Positions 9,551 to 38,721 of a stretch of 46,145 nt of DNA are shown here, one piece after another (position 1 is the first letter of the stretch; each line of letters starts with the position of its first letter). This DNA is from a virus. Made by a program: the position numbers and the translations under genes. The notes beneath the pieces are model-generated. The model worked only from the letters and a program-made list of their open reading frames with translations, was not told the origin of the DNA and did not search any database. The DNA lies in the UHGV virus genome UHGV-0144499; one strand, 5' to 3'.

Positions 9551-9627
9551 TGGTTCCCGCGACAGGATTCGAACCTGTAATCATCCGATTATGAGCCGGG
9601 TGCTTTAACCAGTTAAGCTAAACGGGA
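9551..9627 (-). tRNA. tRNA-Met/Ile2 (anticodon CAT), encoded CCA
   Basis: Hand-folded cloverleaf: acceptor tcccgtt/cgcggga (one mismatch), D-arm gctt...aagc, anticodon loop ctCATaa, T-arm acagg-ttcgaat-cctgt, 3' CCA. Confidence 0.6.
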
Positions 9628-9630
9628 ATT

Positions 9631-9707
9631 TGGTGCACCATACTGGATTCGAACCAGTTACCGATTGCTTAGAAGGCAATTGCTCTATCCTGATGAGCTA
9701 ATGGTGC
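9631..9707 (-). tRNA. tRNA-Arg (anticodon TCT), encoded CCA
   Basis: Perfect cloverleaf: acceptor gcaccat/atggtgc, D-arm gctc...gagc, anticodon stem attgc/gcaat with loop ctTCTaa, T-arm actgg-ttcgaat-ccagt, disc A, CCA. Confidence 0.8.
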
Positions 9708-20435: not shown

Positions 20436-20473
20436 TACAATAGGGCAATTAATGATTATGGAGATTGCAGCCA

Positions 20474-23443
20474 ATGGCTACTACCCCAACTAACAATCCA
20501 GTCCCATCAAACGACCTGAATGATTTTAGATTCAACTGCGAAAAAGTTGATGAGATTGTAAATTCAGATAGTGAGAAATACACTGATAGATTAGGTGTAG
20601 AAAGATATACCATTGATGGTGTAAGAAAAAATCTTATTCCTCTTGGTAAGCAATATATGACGCTATCTGATGCACAGGCTGATATTGCTAATATACCGGT
20701 TAACTCTTACACCTATGTGCGAGACGCATCTGGCGCTGCTCTTGCTTCCGAGTACCAGAATGTCGCCGGGGTATTAACAGCGACTGGCCGAAAAATGCCG
20801 TCGTATGACTCAATAAAAAGATCAAATATCCTTTTTGACACATTCAATGAACAATCATCAGCACAGTTAACTTTTGCTAATTGGGACTGGTATAAAGGGG
20901 CGACCCCAACTTTTTCAACAAGCGACTCTAATCTACCGCTTCCAACACCTGTTATTCAAGCTTCTGGTGTAACATCGTTTGATAAATATTACGATGTGTC
21001 AAAATTACAGGTAAAACCAGGAGACACTTTAGCTTTCTCTGTTTTGGTATGGTTCGAGAACGCTGGAGGCAAGTTACAGATTTATTGGCTTGATTCAGCA
21101 GGAGCAACCATCACTACAGGGGAAGCATCTCCACTGGTTGCTGGCATATCCTCTCCGGTTGTGGTCATTGCTGTGCCATCTGGCGCATCATCCATACGAA
21201 TTCGGGTGCAAAACACTGTGTCAGGGGCGTTCAAAATCGGCGCCTATGCCGCAGCTATTGGTGATGTTACTCCTGAATTCACAAGGTCTTTCCCTTCAAA
21301 AGCGCACCAGGAGGCATTGGGTACCCCTGATAACCTCGTATACGACCCATTTGGCGAAATGCTGGCAGTACGTCCAAAACAAGGACTTCCTGCAGGTGTT
21401 GTGGATGCAATGAGTTATGCCGGAACCCTGATCCAGAACAGCACAAATTCTCCATGGGGTAAAACAGGTATCCAGAACGCGGCCGGGGTGGGTTCTGACC
21501 GCATAATCTCTCTCAGCTCGATGGGCGTTAAGCCAGGAGACACTATCACTGTCCGTCTGGCGGCCTGGTTCGCATCAACGGGTGGCACGTTTCAGGTTTT
21601 CTGTCGTAATGCATCCGGAGCACTTTCCTCGGCAACTATTGCCGCATCAGCATCCGGCTTTAATGATGGAAGTACCACGCTGACAATACCAGCATCAACG
21701 ACATACCTTACGCTTCGCGCATCAGGGGCTATGGTCAAGGAGCTGGTTGCCATAGGTGTAGCTTTCGGACGATCTCGCCCTGAGTTTATTTACGGTAGCC
21801 TTCCAGCAGAGTATTCAGGGTACCAGCGCCAGCAGATTAACCTGTGGCCTGATCCCTGGTATCGCCGCTACGAATGTGGCGAAACAAGAATAGACGGATG
21901 GGGACCAGCTCAGGTTGCCGGGGTTTCGCTTCCGGCCTATGTTGGCGATTATTCAGGTAGCCCTTTCCTGCGAAAGAAATCACTGATTATCCCGGTTGGT
22001 GGTGGCCAAACAGATATCAACATCTCGGCTAAACGACTTGGGCTTCGCGCAGGTGATTCACTGACAGTAGCACTTGGAGTAGTAGCGTCACAGGCTATCA
22101 ACCTAGCTGCTTATTTCCGAACCTCATCCGGGGCAGTAATCAGCGACTCGACATCTCAACTGTTTCAGTTTCCATCGCAACAGTACCAAACGCTTGTGAA
22201 AACAATCACTATTACCCAAGCGATTGTGGATACTGCAGGTTATCTCCAAATAAGGCTGATGAATGCTCAGACAGTAGGCGCTGCTGGCGTCTATGTTGTT
22301 GCCAGGGGGCTTTTTGTCGGAAACGGATCGCCAGTTCTTAGCGATGACACCTATCAGCAGGATTCCGACCATTATTTGGAGAAAACATATACTCTGAATA
22401 GAGATTCGCTCCGCGAGACGCATAAACGTCTTATGAGCAGAAAATTATCTCAATCTGCAACATTGGTTACGGCTCATATAGGTGATAGCTGGACTCACCT
22501 GTGGAACCGTTGGAGTGGTATATTTGCCGGAAAAATGCAGGATGACTACGGAAGTGCTGGTATTGGATATATCGGCTTTGGCTATCCGTCTGAGGCTGGT
22601 TTCGGGCAGTACAACGGCAATATACTTGGTCAGATAACTTTGACCAAAACAGGAACATGGACTCCGACATATGCGGCAGCACAGAGCGCAGATATTTGTA
22701 GCGTCTCGTCTTCTGATACCACCGCTACTTTCAGGGCGAACGGTATACCGGCAAACGCATCGTCAGTCCGCCTTTTTGCTAAACCGCAGGGGAGTGTTAA
22801 ATACAGCACAGATGGTGGAGTTAACTGGACAACTATCGACCTGAGCACGTTCACTGACCTTGCGGTTGTCAGTCTCACGGTGCCTGCAACAGCTTTCAAT
22901 ATCTGGTTCAGTCCGGTATCAGGAACCGTTGAACTGTACGGCCTGGATGTGCAGACCGCTACAGATGGTGTCCGGTCTCACAAGCTGGGTGCGACGGGGA
23001 GTTCTGCTAAACAATGGGCTGCGCAAGTTACCAGTGCAACATGGCAGGCTGCACTCACCGCGCTGGCCCCCAACCTGGTGACTATCCTACACGGGACGAA
23101 CGACCAGACATCCTCGCGCGACCCTGCGGCGTTTGCTGCCGATATTCAGACGATAATCACAGCAGTTCGCACCGCATGTCCATTGTCTGATGTCCTGGTG
23201 ATCATGCCATGTGAAAACCAGAGAAATAACAATGTGGCAATGGCTGCTTATGCGTCAGTGGTAATGGAAGTTTGCGCGCTAAACAGGGTGGCTTACCACA
23301 ATCTTCAGATCGATTATGGCGATAAGCCTTCTGATTATGCGTCAACCTCTCCGCGCAACTGGTTTAACGCAGATGGAATACATCCTGACCCCGCGACTGG
23401 AGGTGGACTTCCTATAGTTTCTGCTGTATTAGGTCTTGTTTAA
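20474..23443 (+). CDS. tail fibre / tailspike with three tandem ~170-aa beta-sandwich repeats and C-terminal SGNH/GDSL hydrolase domain
   Basis: ATG at 20474 with GGAG RBS; repeats marked by KPGDTLAFSV (21013), KPGDTITVRL (21530), RAGDSLTVAL (22047); SGNH blocks I AHIGDSW, III HGTNDQ, V DGIHPD. Confidence 0.7.
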   Translation: MATTPTNNPVPSNDLNDFRFNCEKVDEIVNSDSEKYTDRLGVERYTIDGVRKNLIPLGKQYMTLSDAQADIANIPVNSYTYVRDASGAALASEYQNVAGVLTATGRKMPSYDSIKRSNILFDTFNEQSSAQLTFANWDWYKGATPTFSTSDSNLPLPTPVIQASGVTSFDKYYDVSKLQVKPGDTLAFSVLVWFENAGGKLQIYWLDSAGATITTGEASPLVAGISSPVVVIAVPSGASSIRIRVQNTVSGAFKIGAYAAAIGDVTPEFTRSFPSKAHQEALGTPDNLVYDPFGEMLAVRPKQGLPAGVVDAMSYAGTLIQNSTNSPWGKTGIQNAAGVGSDRIISLSSMGVKPGDTITVRLAAWFASTGGTFQVFCRNASGALSSATIAASASGFNDGSTTLTIPASTTYLTLRASGAMVKELVAIGVAFGRSRPEFIYGSLPAEYSGYQRQQINLWPDPWYRRYECGETRIDGWGPAQVAGVSLPAYVGDYSGSPFLRKKSLIIPVGGGQTDINISAKRLGLRAGDSLTVALGVVASQAINLAAYFRTSSGAVISDSTSQLFQFPSQQYQTLVKTITITQAIVDTAGYLQIRLMNAQTVGAAGVYVVARGLFVGNGSPVLSDDTYQQDSDHYLEKTYTLNRDSLRETHKRLMSRKLSQSATLVTAHIGDSWTHLWNRWSGIFAGKMQDDYGSAGIGYIGFGYPSEAGFGQYNGNILGQITLTKTGTWTPTYAAAQSADICSVSSSDTTATFRANGIPANASSVRLFAKPQGSVKYSTDGGVNWTTIDLSTFTDLAVVSLTVPATAFNIWFSPVSGTVELYGLDVQTATDGVRSHKLGATGSSAKQWAAQVTSATWQAALTALAPNLVTILHGTNDQTSSRDPAAFAADIQTIITAVRTACPLSDVLVIMPCENQRNNNVAMAAYASVVMEVCALNRVAYHNLQIDYGDKPSDYASTSPRNWFNADGIHPDPATGGGLPIVSAVLGLV

Positions 23444-26029: not shown

Positions 26030-26446
26030 TCATTCATCAAGCCCAAAATAGAATAACGTCGCTCTTTTTATCCCTTCAAGACCATAAGCAATAGCGCCAA
26101 AGTGACCCTCTGCAATGGCGCACTCAAGAACCTCAATCTGCGATGGCGATACCTTTGATTTTGTCTTATCACGCCTCTTCAGCTCAATCAGGCCGCATTT
26201 ATGATTAATGCCGTGAGTTAGTATCACATTGTCGCTTACACCGCTCCTGACGCCCATTTTGCGGCGTTTTTCGACGAATTGAGGGCCACTCTTTGTTCCT
26301 GTCTCATTAGGGACATGAAACCACAGGACATCAGGAAATCTGTGTTGCATCCAAAGGCCATACCCCATCTGGTCAGTCTCTTCTTTAGGGCATTCTCCAC
26401 GATAACCACTGTCGAATACCCATATCCCGCTATCAAGCTGCTTCAA
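26030..26446 (-). CDS. VRR-NUC domain nuclease (138 aa)
   Basis: HVPNET...GLIELKRRDK pattern consistent with the VRR-NUC PD-(D/E)XK variant. Confidence 0.5.
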   Translation of the reverse strand: MKQLDSGIWVFDSGYRGECPKEETDQMGYGLWMQHRFPDVLWFHVPNETGTKSGPQFVEKRRKMGVRSGVSDNVILTHGINHKCGLIELKRRDKTKSKVSPSQIEVLECAIAEGHFGAIAYGLEGIKRATLFYFGLDE

Positions 26447-28370
26447 TTTGTTCTCCTATGAAATCCTTGCGGTGGATGACATCGCGGCCCTTATCGTTAA
26501 AGCGATGCGTGATGCGTTTAGGTGCTCTGATTAACCCGGCGTAATGCATGAAAGTCTTCGCATCATGACAGTCCATCATTTTCTTCATCATTGATTTATC
26601 TTCCAGATGCGGAAGCAGAGCTTTCATTTTAAACATGTCGCGCAGGTGCTTTGGCTTGCCTCCAAACGGATAAAACACTTCATTTGCCCAGCCGGTCTTG
26701 CCATCAGCTTTTACCACCAGGTAACGATAAAGAACCCCTTCAGCGTCTTTGGTGAGCTCTACTTTGAATTCTTTTACGTCAGTCCATTCATTATCCGTAT
26801 AAGCGCGCTCATTCAGCGCCGCATTAGGGTCGCGCAAAACGTGATCGCATTGACGGCAATAACGAGCTGTCGGGTCGTTCTTTGTTCCACATCCATCATC
26901 AAAAATGCGGATGCCGTGCTTGTCAAAACCACAGCGAATGAAGCTGAAAAACTCTTCGCATCGTCCGTCTGGCGATGTTGCATCTTTACCGATGCAGCGC
27001 CGTGCATATGGGCTGTTCATCGTCTGGCATTTAGGGCATGGAATCTGCTCTCCACTGCGCTTGGCGCGCTGTGCTTCTGCTTCCTCAAGGATGGGATCTT
27101 CGTAGAGTTGTCCAAGCTCAAACATTGTTCCCGAGAAATCGAGAACTAGATGATCTTCTTTATGATACCCTGCTTCTATGTGTTCTTTTTTAAGTAGTCG
27201 CATACCCCTGCCCAATAATTGGACAAGAAGAGTTAACGACATTATTTTCCTTAGTATGACGCTTACATCCCACAAAGGTATGTTTACACCTGTTGTTAAC
27301 GCCGCAATTTGGAATGTGTATTTTATTTTTCCAGTGTAGGCATCTTTTAGAGCCTTACGGCGAGCTTTCATGCCCATATCTTCAGTTACTATCGCATAGC
27401 TTCCTTCTGGTAAATATTTAGCGGCTTCCAAGCAATGCTTTTTCCCGGCACAGGTAATCAATACACCATTTCTGTCTTTGGTAAGCTCCATGACCTTCAT
27501 CATTATTTTTTGAGTAAGAGTGCCTTGTTCTAATATTTCCTTCTGCATCTGTTTTAGTTGCTCAGCGGTAAAGTCTTGAGTTCCATCAACATCCGAACCG
27601 TGAAAATCAGAAAGGTCATACTGTAAATCATCGACATCATGAAGGCCGAAGATTGTTGGGACAACAAATCCTCGATCGACCATGTACTTTGTATCAATGT
27701 TTATTATTTCGTGCTTCCAGTAGGCACCCTTCATTGACTCAGTGCCACGGAAAGGGCTTCCAGTAAAAGCGATAGTGATCATGTCGTGTCCATACTTTTC
27801 TTTGCAGCGCCGGTTTAGTTCAGTGAGTATTACTCCATACTGAGTTGTTGGGTTGTCACTGACTACATCCTGCCACGGGACCTGATGCCCCTCATCGCAA
27901 AGGCAAAATCTAGGTGTGTAATCTGAAAGGTCTGATTTTTTAATCACTTCACCAGATTCGTTTTTCTTGTCAAAAAGAGCATTTATAATTGTTCCTTCTG
28001 TTGCGCAGATTATTGGGTAAGCAGTGCTCTTTCTTCCTAGCGATGCACTATAAAGTGAGTTCTTAACTCCAAAATTCCAAAGCTCACTTGCATCCTGGTC
28101 GATAATCTCAGACTGTCTAGCTATTACCAGACCTTCCCACCCCATATCCTGGAATCGACTGCACAGCATGGAAATCATTACCGTCTTACCTGATGAAACT
28201 GACGCTGTTACGTAGCTAGGCTTGGGGTCTTTGCCAAAATTACGAATAACCTCTGCGCACTTGGCATACACCAGCCACTGGTAATCATATGGCTCTATGA
28301 GTCCAGGCTTGATAGATTGCTTTAACTTTTCAATGTCAAGCTCTGCAATCATTTTGTCTATTTTATGCAT
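26433..28370 (-). CDS. SF2 (DEAD/DEAH-like) DNA helicase with C-terminal zinc ribbons (645 aa)
   Basis: Motif I ASVSSGKT, motif II DEGH; C-terminal CPKC...C and CxxC...CRQC zinc-ribbon pairs. Confidence 0.7.
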   Translation of the reverse strand: MHKIDKMIAELDIEKLKQSIKPGLIEPYDYQWLVYAKCAEVIRNFGKDPKPSYVTASVSSGKTVMISMLCSRFQDMGWEGLVIARQSEIIDQDASELWNFGVKNSLYSASLGRKSTAYPIICATEGTIINALFDKKNESGEVIKKSDLSDYTPRFCLCDEGHQVPWQDVVSDNPTTQYGVILTELNRRCKEKYGHDMITIAFTGSPFRGTESMKGAYWKHEIINIDTKYMVDRGFVVPTIFGLHDVDDLQYDLSDFHGSDVDGTQDFTAEQLKQMQKEILEQGTLTQKIMMKVMELTKDRNGVLITCAGKKHCLEAAKYLPEGSYAIVTEDMGMKARRKALKDAYTGKIKYTFQIAALTTGVNIPLWDVSVILRKIMSLTLLVQLLGRGMRLLKKEHIEAGYHKEDHLVLDFSGTMFELGQLYEDPILEEAEAQRAKRSGEQIPCPKCQTMNSPYARRCIGKDATSPDGRCEEFFSFIRCGFDKHGIRIFDDGCGTKNDPTARYCRQCDHVLRDPNAALNERAYTDNEWTDVKEFKVELTKDAEGVLYRYLVVKADGKTGWANEVFYPFGGKPKHLRDMFKMKALLPHLEDKSMMKKMMDCHDAKTFMHYAGLIRAPKRITHRFNDKGRDVIHRKDFIGEQIEAA

Positions 28371-34527: not shown

Positions 34528-34944
34528 ATGGCTAAAAAACTATTCAGTAGCGAAAATCAACCACAGAACAAACGCGGGAAGGACAAGAGAAAGCTGCTTG
34601 TAGAGGCTCTTGAGCGCAAGGGATTCAGCGAGGAAAAGCTGTACGATACCATTATTGAAATGGCAATGATTGAGCGCGATACCGCAATGATGAAAGAGCT
34701 TATCGTGCGGTTCAACCCCCTACCCAAGCCTGTAGCCCCTGTGTTTGAGGTCGACTTCCCGGATGATGGAACTCCGGTAGAGAAGATTGACGCAGTCATT
34801 CGCGGCATTGCATCCGGCATTATTCCCGCCGACCTTGGCAAGATGTTTGCCGAAGTTATTAAGACCGGCCTTGACGTCGCGGAAGTAACAGAGCTTGCGG
34901 TGCGCCTTGAGCGGCTGGAGAAGCTACTGGAGCAGCAACAGTAA
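34528..34944 (+). CDS. terminase small subunit (138 aa)
   Basis: Basic N-terminus (NKRGKDKRK), coiled-coil C-terminus, immediately upstream of large terminase. Confidence 0.5.
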   Translation: MAKKLFSSENQPQNKRGKDKRKLLVEALERKGFSEEKLYDTIIEMAMIERDTAMMKELIVRFNPLPKPVAPVFEVDFPDDGTPVEKIDAVIRGIASGIIPADLGKMFAEVIKTGLDVAEVTELAVRLERLEKLLEQQQ

Positions 34945-35043
34945 CTGATTTATAATAATTAATGCGGCTAGGGGGCACCCGAAAAGCGACTCATCACCGC
35001 CTGCTGCATTCACTTCAATGATGCCCTGATGAGGAATCTATAT

Positions 35044-37563
35044 ATGGCACGCAAAAGACTGTCAGCACCAGCAATTGAAAAACTTGAAGAGATTATTGGC
35101 GATGGCGTGATTGATGCGCCTGAATCTGCGGTGTTCGGTGTTGTTAATACAGATAAGCAGATTGTTCGCAAACTCAAAATGACGCAAAGCGGAGTTGATG
35201 ACGTTAGCGACTCTGATATTGGCGTTGATCACCTGATACCAGAAAAGCTGGAAAAGCTACTTTACCCCAAGAGAAATAAGATTGTGTTTGGCGGGCGCGG
35301 ATGCTTAGCCATCGGCACGATGGTGAGGATGTTTGATGGTGGCCTAAAACGCGTAGAGGATATCGTTGTTGGCGATAAGGTTATGGGTCCAGACAGTAAG
35401 TCACGAAATGTTTTAAGCATCTGTCGTGGGTTTGATGACATGTACACGGTTCATCAAAAATATGCCGATAACTACACCGTCAACTCAAGTCACATACTGT
35501 CATTACGAAAGATTCCATCTGCTATCAGTGACGAGACAAAAACACCGGATGGTAAAAGAATTTATCGTTATTACCCAAATGAACCTGAAGTACTGAACAT
35601 CGGTGTTTCAGAATATTTATCGCGCGCAACTTCTAAAAAGTTCCGCCATGTCTTTAAAGGGTGGCGAACAGGGTGGGATTTTAATGAGCAGAGCGTTCCA
35701 GTTGACCCGTACTTCCTTGGTTTATGGTTAGGTGATGGCTCATCTCGTAGTGTTGAAGTATGCACGCCTGATCAAGAGATAGTTGACTACCTTCACAGCA
35801 TAGCAAACCAATACGGGATGCAATTAAAGGCTCGGGATAAAGACAGATGTCCTGTCTATGCGATAACTAATGGCCGAACTGCTGGCATGGGGGAAAACAC
35901 CAACCCGTTACTAACTAAAATGCAGCAGCTTGGGGTGATTAATAATAAACACATACCTGACTGCTATATCAAAAACAGCAGAGAGGTAAGACTTCAGATT
36001 CTGGCTGGGCTATTGGATACTGATTCGCATTACCACAAAGAAAAGAAAAGCTATTGTTTTACATCAATAAATAAAGATATAGCCTTCTCTTTGATGGATG
36101 TAGCAAGATCGCTTGGTTTCAAGTCAAGCATAATCAAAAAGACTGATGTCACCTTTGAGTATAAAGGCGAGAAAAGAATATACGAAAAGGATGTGTGGGA
36201 GGTGTTCGTTAGTGGTGACCTTCATACAATCCCATGCCGAGTAAAAAGGAAGATAGCAGAGAGAACCAAGTCAACTCGCGGGATGATGACTGAGGTGTCA
36301 TTGTCTTATGCCGGGCATGGTGAATACGCTGGGTTCACTCTTGATGGCGATCATCTTTTCTTGCTTGCTGACGGCACAGTTACACACAACAGCGGAAAAA
36401 CAAGAACAGTAACTACAATACTTACGGAGCGTGCACGTTTCAAACCTGACAGGATGGCTTGTTTTCGTGAGATTCAGCAGTCTATTGAGGATAGTTCATA
36501 TCAGGAACTGAAAGACGAGATTGACAGGAAGGGCGAGACAAAAGAGTTCCGCGTCATCAACAACGAAATAACGCACAAGGTAACGAAAGCAAAGTTCCGC
36601 TTTAAAGGGCTGTATCGCAACCAGACGACCGTAAAAGGCTTCGCTGGCATTACAGTAGCTTGGGTCGAGGAGGCGGAAAACGTCAGCCAGACAAGCTGGG
36701 AAATCCTCACCCCAACAGTCCGCGCTGAAGGGTCAGAGATATGGGTGACTTTCAACCCAAATAAAGAGCATGACCCGACGTGGAAAATATGGGTTGAGCC
36801 TTTTTATAATAAATTGCGCGAAAATGGCGGCATCTATGAGGATGATGAAAACCTGATTATCGAGTGTAATTACTCAGACAATCCGTGGTTCTGGGATACT
36901 CCGCTCCCAAGCCAAATGCAGCGCATGAAAGAAACCGACTTCGACCGCTATCAATGGGTGTGGGGTGGGCGCTTTAATAAGCGTAATGATGAGCAGGTAT
37001 TTGGCGGTAAGTGGCGCGTTGCTGATTTCGAGGTTAAGCCGGAATGGCATGGGCCTTACTTTGGCATCGACTTTGGATTCTCGCAGGACGCAACGGCGAT
37101 GGTTGAGGTTTACATTGAGAAACTTCCTGATGACCGCCGCAACCTTTACGTCGCGCGCGAATACGGCCGTGTAGGCCTTGAGATTACCGACACACCTACA
37201 GCGATGGAGCAATCATTCCCACTCTCCAGGAAGGCAAGATGGTATGGGGACTGCTCTCGGCCAGAAACAATCAGTCACATCAAACGCGCAGGATTTGATA
37301 TCCATCCATGCAATAAGTGGCCCGGGAGCGTGGAGGAGGGTGTAACCTGGCTCAGGGGTTGCGACAGCATCATCATTCATGACCGCTGCACACAGACTCA
37401 GGAAGAGTTCACTATGTACAGTTACAAGGTGGACAAGCTGACGGGTAACGTGCTCACAAATATTGTGGATGCGTGGAACCACTTCATTGACGCAATCAGA
37501 TATGCATGCAACGATCACATCGTACAGCGTGGCTCTGGATGGATTAGAAGGGGCAGGAGATGA
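35044..37563 (+). CDS. terminase large subunit, interrupted in-frame by an intein (extein about 476 aa)
   Basis: Walker A split as VFGGRG | intein | SGKTRTVT; Walker B ITVAWVEEAEN; C-terminal nuclease-type region; start at ATG with GAGGA RBS (MARKRLS). Confidence 0.85.
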   Translation: MARKRLSAPAIEKLEEIIGDGVIDAPESAVFGVVNTDKQIVRKLKMTQSGVDDVSDSDIGVDHLIPEKLEKLLYPKRNKIVFGGRGCLAIGTMVRMFDGGLKRVEDIVVGDKVMGPDSKSRNVLSICRGFDDMYTVHQKYADNYTVNSSHILSLRKIPSAISDETKTPDGKRIYRYYPNEPEVLNIGVSEYLSRATSKKFRHVFKGWRTGWDFNEQSVPVDPYFLGLWLGDGSSRSVEVCTPDQEIVDYLHSIANQYGMQLKARDKDRCPVYAITNGRTAGMGENTNPLLTKMQQLGVINNKHIPDCYIKNSREVRLQILAGLLDTDSHYHKEKKSYCFTSINKDIAFSLMDVARSLGFKSSIIKKTDVTFEYKGEKRIYEKDVWEVFVSGDLHTIPCRVKRKIAERTKSTRGMMTEVSLSYAGHGEYAGFTLDGDHLFLLADGTVTHNSGKTRTVTTILTERARFKPDRMACFREIQQSIEDSSYQELKDEIDRKGETKEFRVINNEITHKVTKAKFRFKGLYRNQTTVKGFAGITVAWVEEAENVSQTSWEILTPTVRAEGSEIWVTFNPNKEHDPTWKIWVEPFYNKLRENGGIYEDDENLIIECNYSDNPWFWDTPLPSQMQRMKETDFDRYQWVWGGRFNKRNDEQVFGGKWRVADFEVKPEWHGPYFGIDFGFSQDATAMVEVYIEKLPDDRRNLYVAREYGRVGLEITDTPTAMEQSFPLSRKARWYGDCSRPETISHIKRAGFDIHPCNKWPGSVEEGVTWLRGCDSIIIHDRCTQTQEEFTMYSYKVDKLTGNVLTNIVDAWNHFIDAIRYACNDHIVQRGSGWIRRGRR
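35302..36390 (+). mobile_element. intein with LAGLIDADG homing-endonuclease domain (363 aa) in the terminase P-loop
   Basis: Begins CLAIGT (block A), TVNSSH (block B), LGLWLGDGS and LAGLLDTDSHY (LAGLIDADG blocks), ends ...VTHN followed by extein Ser (block G); insertion precisely between GRG and SGKT of Walker A. Confidence 0.8.
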
Positions 37564-38232: not shown

Positions 38233-38721
38233 ATGACAACAATTGCATGGGATGGGGTTACGATTGCGCACGATAGTCAGTCCACTGCCGGAAGCCTGAT
38301 TATGGCTAACCAGCAGAAGTCTTTTGTACTTGATGAAAATGATAAGTTTTTTATTTGCGGTGAGCTGGCTGTATTGATTGTTGGTAGTGGTGCTGCTGGC
38401 GATGAACGATATGCGAAGCAGTTCATGCGTCGGGCCGTTGATGACATTATGGAGATGCCAGAAGAGCTGGACTTTACTCAGTGGGTATTCACAGATAAAG
38501 GGAACTGTTTTGCCATCCAGAAGATTCCTGACAATAAATATCCAGCTGTTTACGCAGTCATTCCTCCGCTTGCTGCTGGCTGTGGGCGCGACTTTGCTAT
38601 GACCGCGATGTATCTTGGGCAGACGGCTGAACAGGCGGTAATTACTGCGTCAGTTCTCGATGCTTTCACTGACTCGAATGTTAAAACATATAAATTTAAA
38701 CACGGTGAGGGGATGAAATGA
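38233..38721 (+). CDS. HslV/proteasome-beta-like Ntn-hydrolase (threonine peptidase T1-like), 162 aa
   Basis: MTTIAWDGVTIAHDSQSTAGSLIMANQQKSFVLDENDKFFICGELAVLIVGSGAAGD aligns motif-for-motif with HslV N-terminus (TTIV...V.IA.D.Q.T.G...M.K......NDK.I.G.AG...D): catalytic Thr directly after Met, conserved Asp, Lys and NDK block; RBS GAGGTGA. Confidence 0.6.
   Translation: MTTIAWDGVTIAHDSQSTAGSLIMANQQKSFVLDENDKFFICGELAVLIVGSGAAGDERYAKQFMRRAVDDIMEMPEELDFTQWVFTDKGNCFAIQKIPDNKYPAVYAVIPPLAAGCGRDFAMTAMYLGQTAEQAVITASVLDAFTDSNVKTYKFKHGEGMK

Follow-up and report, generated by a model that had tools for sequence, protein, structure and literature searches.

Among phage proteins, terminases are frequently targeted by inteins, and many ATPases carry inteins in the P-loop (Novikova et al. 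2016, MBE, PMC4760082). In mycobacteriophages, the large terminase subunit (TerL) is the most frequent intein host, the commonest insertion sites being TerL1-a and TerL1-b in the Walker A motif (Kelley et al. 2016, mBio, PMC5050341). Five terminase inteins were tested in that study, splicing was shown with reporters, and the endonucleases were found to cleave intein-less partner alleles. Very recently, nearly 800 inteins were reported from actinophages, 293 of them in TerL, and extein switching via shared nucleotide-binding motifs was proposed (2025 preprint 10.1101/2025.01.02.630785). The element described here is located in the terL gene of the UHGV virus genome UHGV-0144499, a stretch of 46,145 nucleotides (nt) which was analysed as a whole and is called the window in the following. 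Its closest solved relative is PI-SceI, the VMA1 intein of S. cerevisiae (PDB 1VDE, 1DFA, 1LWS, 1LWT; PF05203 and PF05204). Very probably, the element is a class-1, PI-SceI-type intein with a monomeric two-motif LAGLIDADG endonuclease, placed in the Walker A codons of a P22-gp2/PBSX-type (Pfam Terminase_3) TerL, which splices and has spread together with its flanks by homing or endonuclease-stimulated recombination.

The window represents a siphophage genome of ~46 kb, close to the Klebsiella phages of the pIS4-A / KpV2811 / KP591P3 group, which includes Roufvirus. The gene for the TerL precursor, on the plus strand like all of its parts discussed below, covers positions 35044..37563 (839 codons plus stop), and its product is matched by Terminase_3 (PF04466, 6e-32), Terminase_3C (PF17288, 1e-13) and the PBSX-type TerL model TIGR01547 (6e-37, 128 bits vs. 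a cut-off of 105). In the list of open reading frames (ORFs), the longest terL frame spans 35029-37563; the start is likely the ATG at 35044 and not 35029, because a GAGGA Shine-Dalgarno sequence is found at 35031-35035 and MARKRL starts are annotated in all relatives. The product shows the architecture of a large terminase with an N-terminal ATPase carrying the Walker A motif GxxxxGK[ST] and a C-terminal RNase-H-like nuclease, the Walker A motif being whole only after splicing in silico. The in-silico spliced TerL also matches the SPP1 nuclease (2WBN, 3e-10).

A sequence-only reading of this DNA had described an insert of 363 codons at 35302-36390, removal of which would restore the Walker A sequence GGRGSGKT, and both coordinates and junctions proved correct to the base. 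The N-extein (35044..35301; 258 nt, 86 amino acids, aa) ends in KIVFGGRG, with GGRG at 35290-35301 forming the first half of Walker A. It is followed in frame by the intein (35302..36390; 1089 nt), which runs from Cys1 (TGC, 35302-35304) to His362-Asn363 (36385-36390; Asn AAC 36388-36390). The C-extein (36391..37563; 390 aa plus stop) starts with Ser+1 (AGC, 36391-36393), which opens the second Walker A half SGKT (36391-36402), and continues with the remaining ATPase domain and the RNase-H-like nuclease domain. Around the two junctions, the protein thus reads ...KIVFGGRG↓CLAIGT...GTVTHN↓SGKTRTVT (arrows mark extein-intein boundaries or, below, insertion points). The ~55 kDa and ~41 kDa estimated in the same reading for the spliced product and the intein agree with computed masses of 55.3 kDa (476 aa) and 41.2 kDa, respectively, while the precursor amounts to 839 aa and 96.4 kDa.

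Relatives lacking the insert define its boundaries. In a megablast search of the terL gene against 50,697 phage records, full-length matches were obtained for 11 records (7 phages), and a further 26 phage records matched only from query base 1369 onward, which equals window position 36397, six bases past the insert. When the protein was aligned with TerL of Klebsiella phage KP591P1, which lacks the intein, a single gap of exactly 363 residues appeared between FGGRG and S(S/G)KTRTVT. Aligning the extein-only protein with insert-lacking relatives had been proposed as a check in the sequence-only reading, and all four intein-less TerLs (KP591P1, GP-1, VLCpiS13a and VLCpiS13c) indeed lack exactly residues 87-449 and read FGGRG↓SSKTRT. 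After splicing in silico, TerL aligns with P22 gp2 (4IDH, E 1.6e-39) with no gap across the junction (KVAKGGRGSGKSWAI vs. KIVFGGRGSGKTRTV), and its Terminase_3 score increases from 111 to 128 bits, the match now covering the P-loop end of the profile. Hence, the exact gap in the intein-less relatives and the gap-free alignment with P22 gp2 place the insert within Walker A, which is broken between its fourth and fifth residues (GGRG and SGKT). The intein-less alleles (L001:2737-4167, L006, L007 and L008) themselves display a deviant Walker A motif, GGRGSSKT, in which the Gly that is normally conserved ahead of Lys is replaced by Ser. Directly 3' of the insertion point, the next two codons read AGC GGA in intein-bearing and TCA TCG in intein-less alleles, a difference in six of six bases. 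These deviant codons could reflect resistance to the homing endonuclease or merely separate ancestry.

The insert itself was recognised by the Pfam profiles Hom_end_hint (PF05203, 5e-20), Hom_end (PF05204, 1e-9) and LAGLIDADG_3 (PF14528, 9e-7), a profile search of the kind likewise suggested in the sequence-only reading. The NCBIfam models contributed little, as TIGR01443 (intein_Cterm) matched the full protein only marginally (16.4 bits vs. a cut-off of 15.6) and no N-terminal intein model among them gave a match; Pfam and structure are decisive for the identity of the intein. An AlphaFold2 model of the intein built on 60 relatives (pLDDT 93.2, pTM 0.90) retrieved PI-SceI chains as the top 11 matches in a Foldseek search of the PDB (E 8.6e-28, TMq 0.77), followed by the Tli/Pho VMA inteins, PI-PfuI, Prp8 inteins and the two-motif LAGLIDADG enzyme I-DmoI. 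The Pfam E-values, together with a PI-SceI match at E 2.6e-19 in which both termini are aligned, put the resemblance to inteins far beyond chance.

The N-terminal part of the HINT domain occupies 35302..35691 (residues ~1-130) and comprises block A with Cys1 and block B, N61-S-S-H64, at 35482-35493; Hom_end_hint matches residues 1-87, and PI-SceI residues 1-56 are aligned here. The LAGLIDADG homing-endonuclease domain follows at 35692..36231 (residues ~131-310), as located by the Hom_end, LAGLIDADG_3 and I-DmoI fold matches. It contains the first motif, LGLWLGDGS (35716-35742), with Asp145, the second motif, LAGLLDTDS (36001-36027), with Asp241, and between them Lys216 (35947-35949). The C-terminal part of HINT (36232..36390, residues ~311-363) carries Lys317 and blocks F/G, ...FTLDGDHLFLLADGTVTHN, which align with the PI-SceI C-terminus ...DHQFLLANQVVVHN. 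Nucleophiles are thus present at both ends (Cys1 and extein Ser+1), together with the N-x-x-H of block B and the penultimate His followed by terminal Asn, and each LAGLIDADG helix ends in an acidic residue. In an alignment of 87 full-length intein relatives, the window intein has the consensus residue at every catalytic position checked, both for splicing (C1 kept in 86/87, N61 in 80/87, H64 in 87/87, H362 in 82/87, N363 in 87/87) and for the endonuclease (D145 in 86/87, K216 in 83/87, D241 in 85/87, K317 in 83/87). All intein hallmarks named in the sequence-only reading (N-terminal Cys, block B NSSH, two LAGLIDADG motifs, terminal HN followed by Ser) are therefore borne out, and so is its view that the endonuclease looks intact, which agrees with the conserved catalytic residues, the predicted fold and the purifying selection on the endonuclease part described below. 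Judged by its residues and predicted fold, the insert is a canonical class-1, PI-SceI-type intein with a two-motif LAGLIDADG homing endonuclease, apparently intact. No second intein was detected in the window by tblastn, and the window helicase (26433-28370, minus strand) is also intein-free.

In common with PI-SceI, the window intein consists of a HINT domain interrupted by a two-motif LAGLIDADG endonuclease. Window residues 1-56 and 133-363 align to PI-SceI residues 1-56 and 206-454 with junctions in register, and both share Cys1, the N-x-x-H variant of block B and the terminal HN. PI-SceI N76, H79, D218, K301, D326 and K403 correspond to N61, H64, D145, K216, D241 and K317 of the window intein, respectively; in PI-SceI, these residues have catalytic roles, K301 and K403 being auxiliary active-site lysines. 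At the same time, identity is only ~23%, and with 363 aa vs. 454 aa the window intein is 91 residues shorter. Nearly all of this difference falls in the part of the splicing domain that corresponds to the DNA-recognition insert of PI-SceI; here, residues 57-132 replace PI-SceI 57-205, and the region is thus much reduced in the window intein. Further differences concern the +1 residue, which is Ser in the window intein and Cys in PI-SceI, as well as PI-SceI D229 and T341, which correspond to Cys154 and Ser255; D229 is not conserved. The host protein and site differ as well, the VMA1 intein being inserted at ...AIIYVG↓CGER..., outside the P-loop. That the VMA1 intein of yeast shares the P-loop register of the window intein (GAFG↓CGKT) was considered and ruled out, since the VMA1 precursor in PDB 9COP reads ...AIIYVG↓CFAKGT...VVVHN↓CGER.

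From these features, a course of events can be proposed. The terL gene would be translated into a 96-kDa precursor with its P-loop split by the intein into GGRG and SGKT and, owing to this split, unable to bind or hydrolyse ATP. Splicing by the HINT domain would start with an N-S acyl shift at Cys1, followed by trans-esterification of the thioester to the hydroxyl of Ser+1. Cyclisation of Asn363, aided by His362, would then free the intein, and an O-N shift would make the Gly-Ser peptide bond. The products would be 55-kDa TerL, its GGRGSGKT loop now whole, and the excised intein of 41 kDa. In a mixed infection, the endonuclease of the free intein would cut a cognate intein-less terL allele, and with the intein-bearing allele as repair template, the intein would be copied along with adjoining extein DNA. 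Such homing repair, or endonuclease-stimulated recombination, would have moved the cassette of intein plus flanks among phages of at least three genera.

For packaging, the ATPase activity of TerL and hence an intact P-loop are essential. The same intein at the same site is found in seven cultured, plaque-forming phages that were isolated independently (pIS4-A, pYD38-A, KpV2811, ST44, ST46, ST65 and Segz_1). We infer that the intein splices in vivo, because these seven phages carry it in the P-loop of their indispensable packaging ATPase. Additionally, 12 IMG/VR contigs with an occupied junction are all full length, without stop codons and with C1, HN and S+1 kept; among the 19 known copies, all of them full length, no mini-intein derivatives occur. 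Ratios of nonsynonymous to synonymous substitution (dN/dS), determined according to Nei-Gojobori, are 0.15-0.26 for the intein, 0.17-0.38 for its endonuclease part and 0.01-0.14 for the exteins. Hence, the intein is under purifying selection, which is more relaxed than that on the terminase. The only hint that the 363 residues might instead form a permanent, non-splicing terminase domain, or that the ORF might be an assembly or annotation artefact, is that the relatives' GenBank records list one 839-aa 'terminase large subunit' and do not mention an intein. Such an explanation is effectively refuted, given that the insertion interrupts GxxxxGK[ST], that every splicing residue is conserved, that intein-less orthologues exist and that the same insertion recurs in seven independently sequenced isolates and 12 metagenomic contigs.

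The distribution of identity around the intein points to a mobile cassette, or co-conversion tract, of ~1.7 kb at 34933..36660 on the plus strand, comprising the upstream intergenic region, the N-extein, the intein and approximately the first 270 nt of the C-extein; its edges are approximate, and the right one is a gradient. Accordingly composed of the intein with ~370 nt upstream and ~270 nt downstream, it is 92-99% identical across phages of three genera. Over the 258 nt of the N-extein, all intein-containing alleles (genera Roufvirus, Macdonaldcampvirus and Segzyvirus) show 98-99% identity, while all intein-less ones reach only 58-59%. At the protein level, this 86-aa segment of TerL exists in two versions (~58% aa identity) which track presence or absence of the intein perfectly (window 34933-35301 vs. 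L001, L006, L007, L008). Identity profiles in 90-nt bins between the window and the Salmonella phages ST46 and Segz_1 gave 98-99% for the N-extein, 94-95% for the intein overall (82-100% per bin) and 92-98% for the first ~270 nt of the C-extein, with a drop to 61-88% thereafter. Synonymous divergence (dS) between the window and ST46 is 0.17 in the intein, compared to >2.6 (saturated) in the distal C-extein. In the comparison with intein-less KP591P1, identity is 71% in the 90 nt adjoining the site and rises to 90-98% farther off. Homology of the intein-less phages to the window ends at 34932 and restarts at 36397. GC content at third codon positions is 41-43% in the N-extein and intein vs. 56% in the C-extein. 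To judge from these profiles, the cassette has been exchanged among otherwise diverged phages, the footprint being that of homing with co-conversion or of endonuclease-stimulated recombination.

At its left edge, the gene upstream in the window (34528-34944) is 89% like that of the intein-less phages, and this resemblance therefore sets a recombination joint near 34858-34932. Overlapping the terL start, the intein-less phages have an additional 51-aa ORF (e.g., L006:2092-2247) that is missing from the window. Within the endonuclease domain, identity is clearly lower in two 90-nt bins (82-89%) than in the rest of the intein, at 35764-35853 against all four compared intein copies and at 36034-36123 only against KpV2811 and pIS4-A. 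These bins are local hot spots of amino-acid change in the endonuclease, possibly in surface or DNA-contact regions.

How the cassette spread is less clear-cut, and several observations weigh against spread by homing. We infer both splicing and DNA cleavage by the window intein from its sequence. The cognate intein-less site, i.e. the same flanks without the intein, would in synthetic form read AAGATTGTGTTTGGCGGGCGCGGA↓AGCGGAAAAACAAGAACAGTA (also AAGATTGTGTTTGGCGGGCGCGGAAGCGGAAAAACAAGAACAGTA). A search for it with a strict 29-nt pattern returned 0 hits in IMG/VR and 0 in JGI metagenomes, whereas the occupied junction, as positive control, was found in the 12 IMG/VR contigs; this negative is weak evidence, because the pattern is strict. 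Known intein-less alleles, such as the natural site of KP591P1 / VLCpiS13a (...TTCGGAGGGCGAGGGTCATCGAAGACC...), deviate at 12-13 of the 30 nt that surround the insertion point, among them all six bases of the two codons on its 3' side. With no cognate site found and the empty alleles diverged, present-day homing therefore has no demonstrated target. The cassette is also asymmetric: the divergence boundary lies within 6 nt of the intein 3' end, where homology to the intein-less alleles returns, yet the N-extein on the opposite side is replaced in its entirety. Ordinary modular recombination with a single breakpoint at the intein, instead of classical symmetric co-conversion, would explain such asymmetry as well. 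Moreover, dN/dS of the endonuclease part exceeds that of the exteins several-fold, and the enzyme could be active, idle or decaying.

The missing cognate site, the mismatches, the raised dN/dS and the asymmetry speak for a rival view, on which the intein splices but its endonuclease is no longer active or has no targets left. The intein would then be fixed and passed on vertically as a passenger whose homing cycle has ended, and the mosaic would have arisen by ordinary modular recombination. This is possible but rather unlikely. D145, D241, K216 and K317, the equivalents of the PI-SceI active site, are all kept in the window intein and at least 95% conserved family-wide, dN/dS is well under 1, 19 of 19 known copies are full length without any mini-intein, and the C-extein identity gradient falling away from the site is what co-conversion predicts. 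Susceptible targets for the intein may nevertheless be exhausted within the sampled population, and the known empty alleles may be resistant to cleavage.

The wider family to which the intein belongs was examined by an intein-only search of 5.8 billion proteins, which gave 191 matches at E below 1e-5. Among the hosts of the full-length relatives, which are 30-44% identical to the window intein, are DnaB, thymidine kinase, PhoH, AAA_24, AAA+, dTMP kinase, ABC, DEAD/ResIII, RuvB, Clp and Terminase_3 proteins. Essentially all junctions extracted from these proteins (P0001-P0120) are located in the P-loop; as read from them, the family occupies the P-loops of at least a dozen unrelated nucleoside triphosphatase (NTPase) families. 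The insertion register is mostly GK↓[ST], whereas a minority shares the G↓[ST]GK[ST] register of the window, for instance PhoH (GRAG↓SGKS) and an unnamed family (GSSG↓SGKS). Other Terminase_3 inteins (P0013, P0015, P0020 and P0041) use the GK↓S register, three residues downstream of the window site. In a rough neighbour-joining tree of 87 inteins, which lacks support values and whose deep branches are long and star-like, the window intein falls together with these GK↓S-register Terminase_3 inteins; this grouping is a hint at most. Five family members (P0048, P0086, P0089, P0090 and P0109; GKPG↓TGKS) end in V-K-N or L-R-N and thus lack the penultimate His. In the phage collection, 592 records contain relatives of the intein at E below 1e-10, including helicases of Jerseyvirus-type Salmonella phages and 267 mycobacteriophages.

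Among the described P-loop inteins, TerL1-a and TerL1-b share their setting with the window intein: all are found in the Walker A motif of a phage TerL, need to be spliced for ATPase function, contain LAGLIDADG endonucleases and are patchily spread among related phages (PMC5050341). They differ in the terminase family, which is Terminase_1 and Terminase_6 for TerL1-a/TerL1-b and Terminase_3 (P22 gp2/PBSX) in the window. The register is different as well, TerL1-a being inserted at GK↓T (Lys/Thr) and TerL1-b one residue away, while the window intein (G↓SGKT) is found three residues upstream of K↓T. TerL1-a and TerL1-b occur in actinophages, and the window intein, known here from sequence alone, in phages of Enterobacteriaceae. 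From the P-loop inteins of DnaB, MCM, RFC, PhoH and others (PMC4760082) it is distinct, being at most 44% identical to any non-terminase family member. The same host range applies to the helicase inteins of Jerseyvirus-like Salmonella phages (e.g., the 'putative intein-containing helicase' of St162) and of Klebsiella phage MEW1, siphophages as well, whose inteins belong to the same family with 37-38% identity over 363 residues. Their host gene, however, is a helicase instead of a terminase, and they are only distantly related.

In the sequence-only reading, the intein had additionally been called a post-translational checkpoint on DNA packaging. A checkpoint implies regulated or conditional splicing, and the sequence supports nothing of the kind, only that splicing is required. 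According to this idea, splicing would respond to redox state, metal ions, temperature or the binding of DNA or the small terminase subunit (TerS) and would serve as a regulated timer of packaging-motor assembly. The intein is indeed placed in the catalytic loop, so that unspliced TerL is necessarily inactive, and some inteins of bacteria and archaea are documented to splice conditionally. Kelley et al. also noted that no pentamers are possible before splicing and raised a regulatory role, as speculation (PMC5050341). All five terminase inteins in that study spliced readily, though, and close relatives whose C-exteins are 97% identical manage to package DNA without any intein. No sensor is indicated by the window sequence, its intein being the standard family consensus. 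The P-loop location, being the rule for this family across many NTPases, is equally explained by an endonuclease targeting conserved DNA and by the difficulty of deleting an intein precisely. Conditional splicing as a timer is thus very unlikely. The same low probability is given to its elaborated form, in which splicing would be delayed until procapsids, TerS or concatemeric DNA are present, or would be redox-responsive via one of the seven intein cysteines, with the timing benefiting the phage and so accounting for retention and spread with a matched N-extein. The checkpoint remains unsupported speculation, already present in the literature.

Apart from the terminase, the window codes for capsid protein, tape measure, portal, helicase, primase and two tRNAs. 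The gene immediately upstream of terL (34528-34944) is a small-terminase candidate by position, its only match being phrog_9747 of unknown function. Terminase and portal genes are set ~2 kb apart by small ORFs, one of which (38233-38721, plus strand; 162 aa) matches the PHROG 'peptidase HslV family' (phrog_1040, 3e-27). In the tail-gene region, a 992-aa ORF (20465-23443, plus strand) with a C-terminal GDSL/SGNH esterase domain (Pfam Lipase_GDSL_2, 4e-13) may encode a tail fibre or spike deacetylating or cleaving surface polysaccharide. Neighbouring genes for tRNA-Met (CAT) and tRNA-Arg (TCT) at 9551-9707 on the minus strand occur likewise in related phages. The recorded hosts of pIS4-A (JF974294) and pYD38-A (JF974312), Aeromonas and Vibrio, respectively, are surprising labels for such close relatives: the terL gene of each is 95.4% identical to that of the window, and pIS4-A is, like the Klebsiella phages, ~93% identical to the window across most of the first 25 kb.

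Since terminase P-loop inteins are already well described, the window intein is an ordinary, unannotated example of a well-known selfish element and leaves the current understanding of inteins unchanged. What is specific here is modest, namely the Terminase_3 (P22-type) host protein, the G↓SGKT register and the enterobacterial siphophage hosts. The intein is not mentioned in the GenBank records inspected or listed among the 11 records of the seven phages, where the gene is labelled only "terminase (large subunit)", and within the library searched, no paper was found to describe inteins for pIS4-A, pYD38-A, KpV2811, Segz_1, Roufvirus or the terminases of Klebsiella siphophages. As a consequence of the missing annotation, the terL products in GenBank, and by implication that of the window, are ~363 aa too long as terminases. 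Removal of the intein and of the flanks transferred with it is needed to keep TerL phylogenies, which routinely serve for phage classification and prediction of the packaging strategy, from being distorted. Several of the relatives are phage-therapy candidates. As a compact PI-SceI-type intein, the element is possibly useful as a splicing or meganuclease scaffold. For the phages themselves, it offers a clean natural case of an intein-plus-flank cassette passing between Klebsiella and Salmonella siphophage genera, and it indicates that Terminase_3 terminases host related inteins at two registers of one P-loop.

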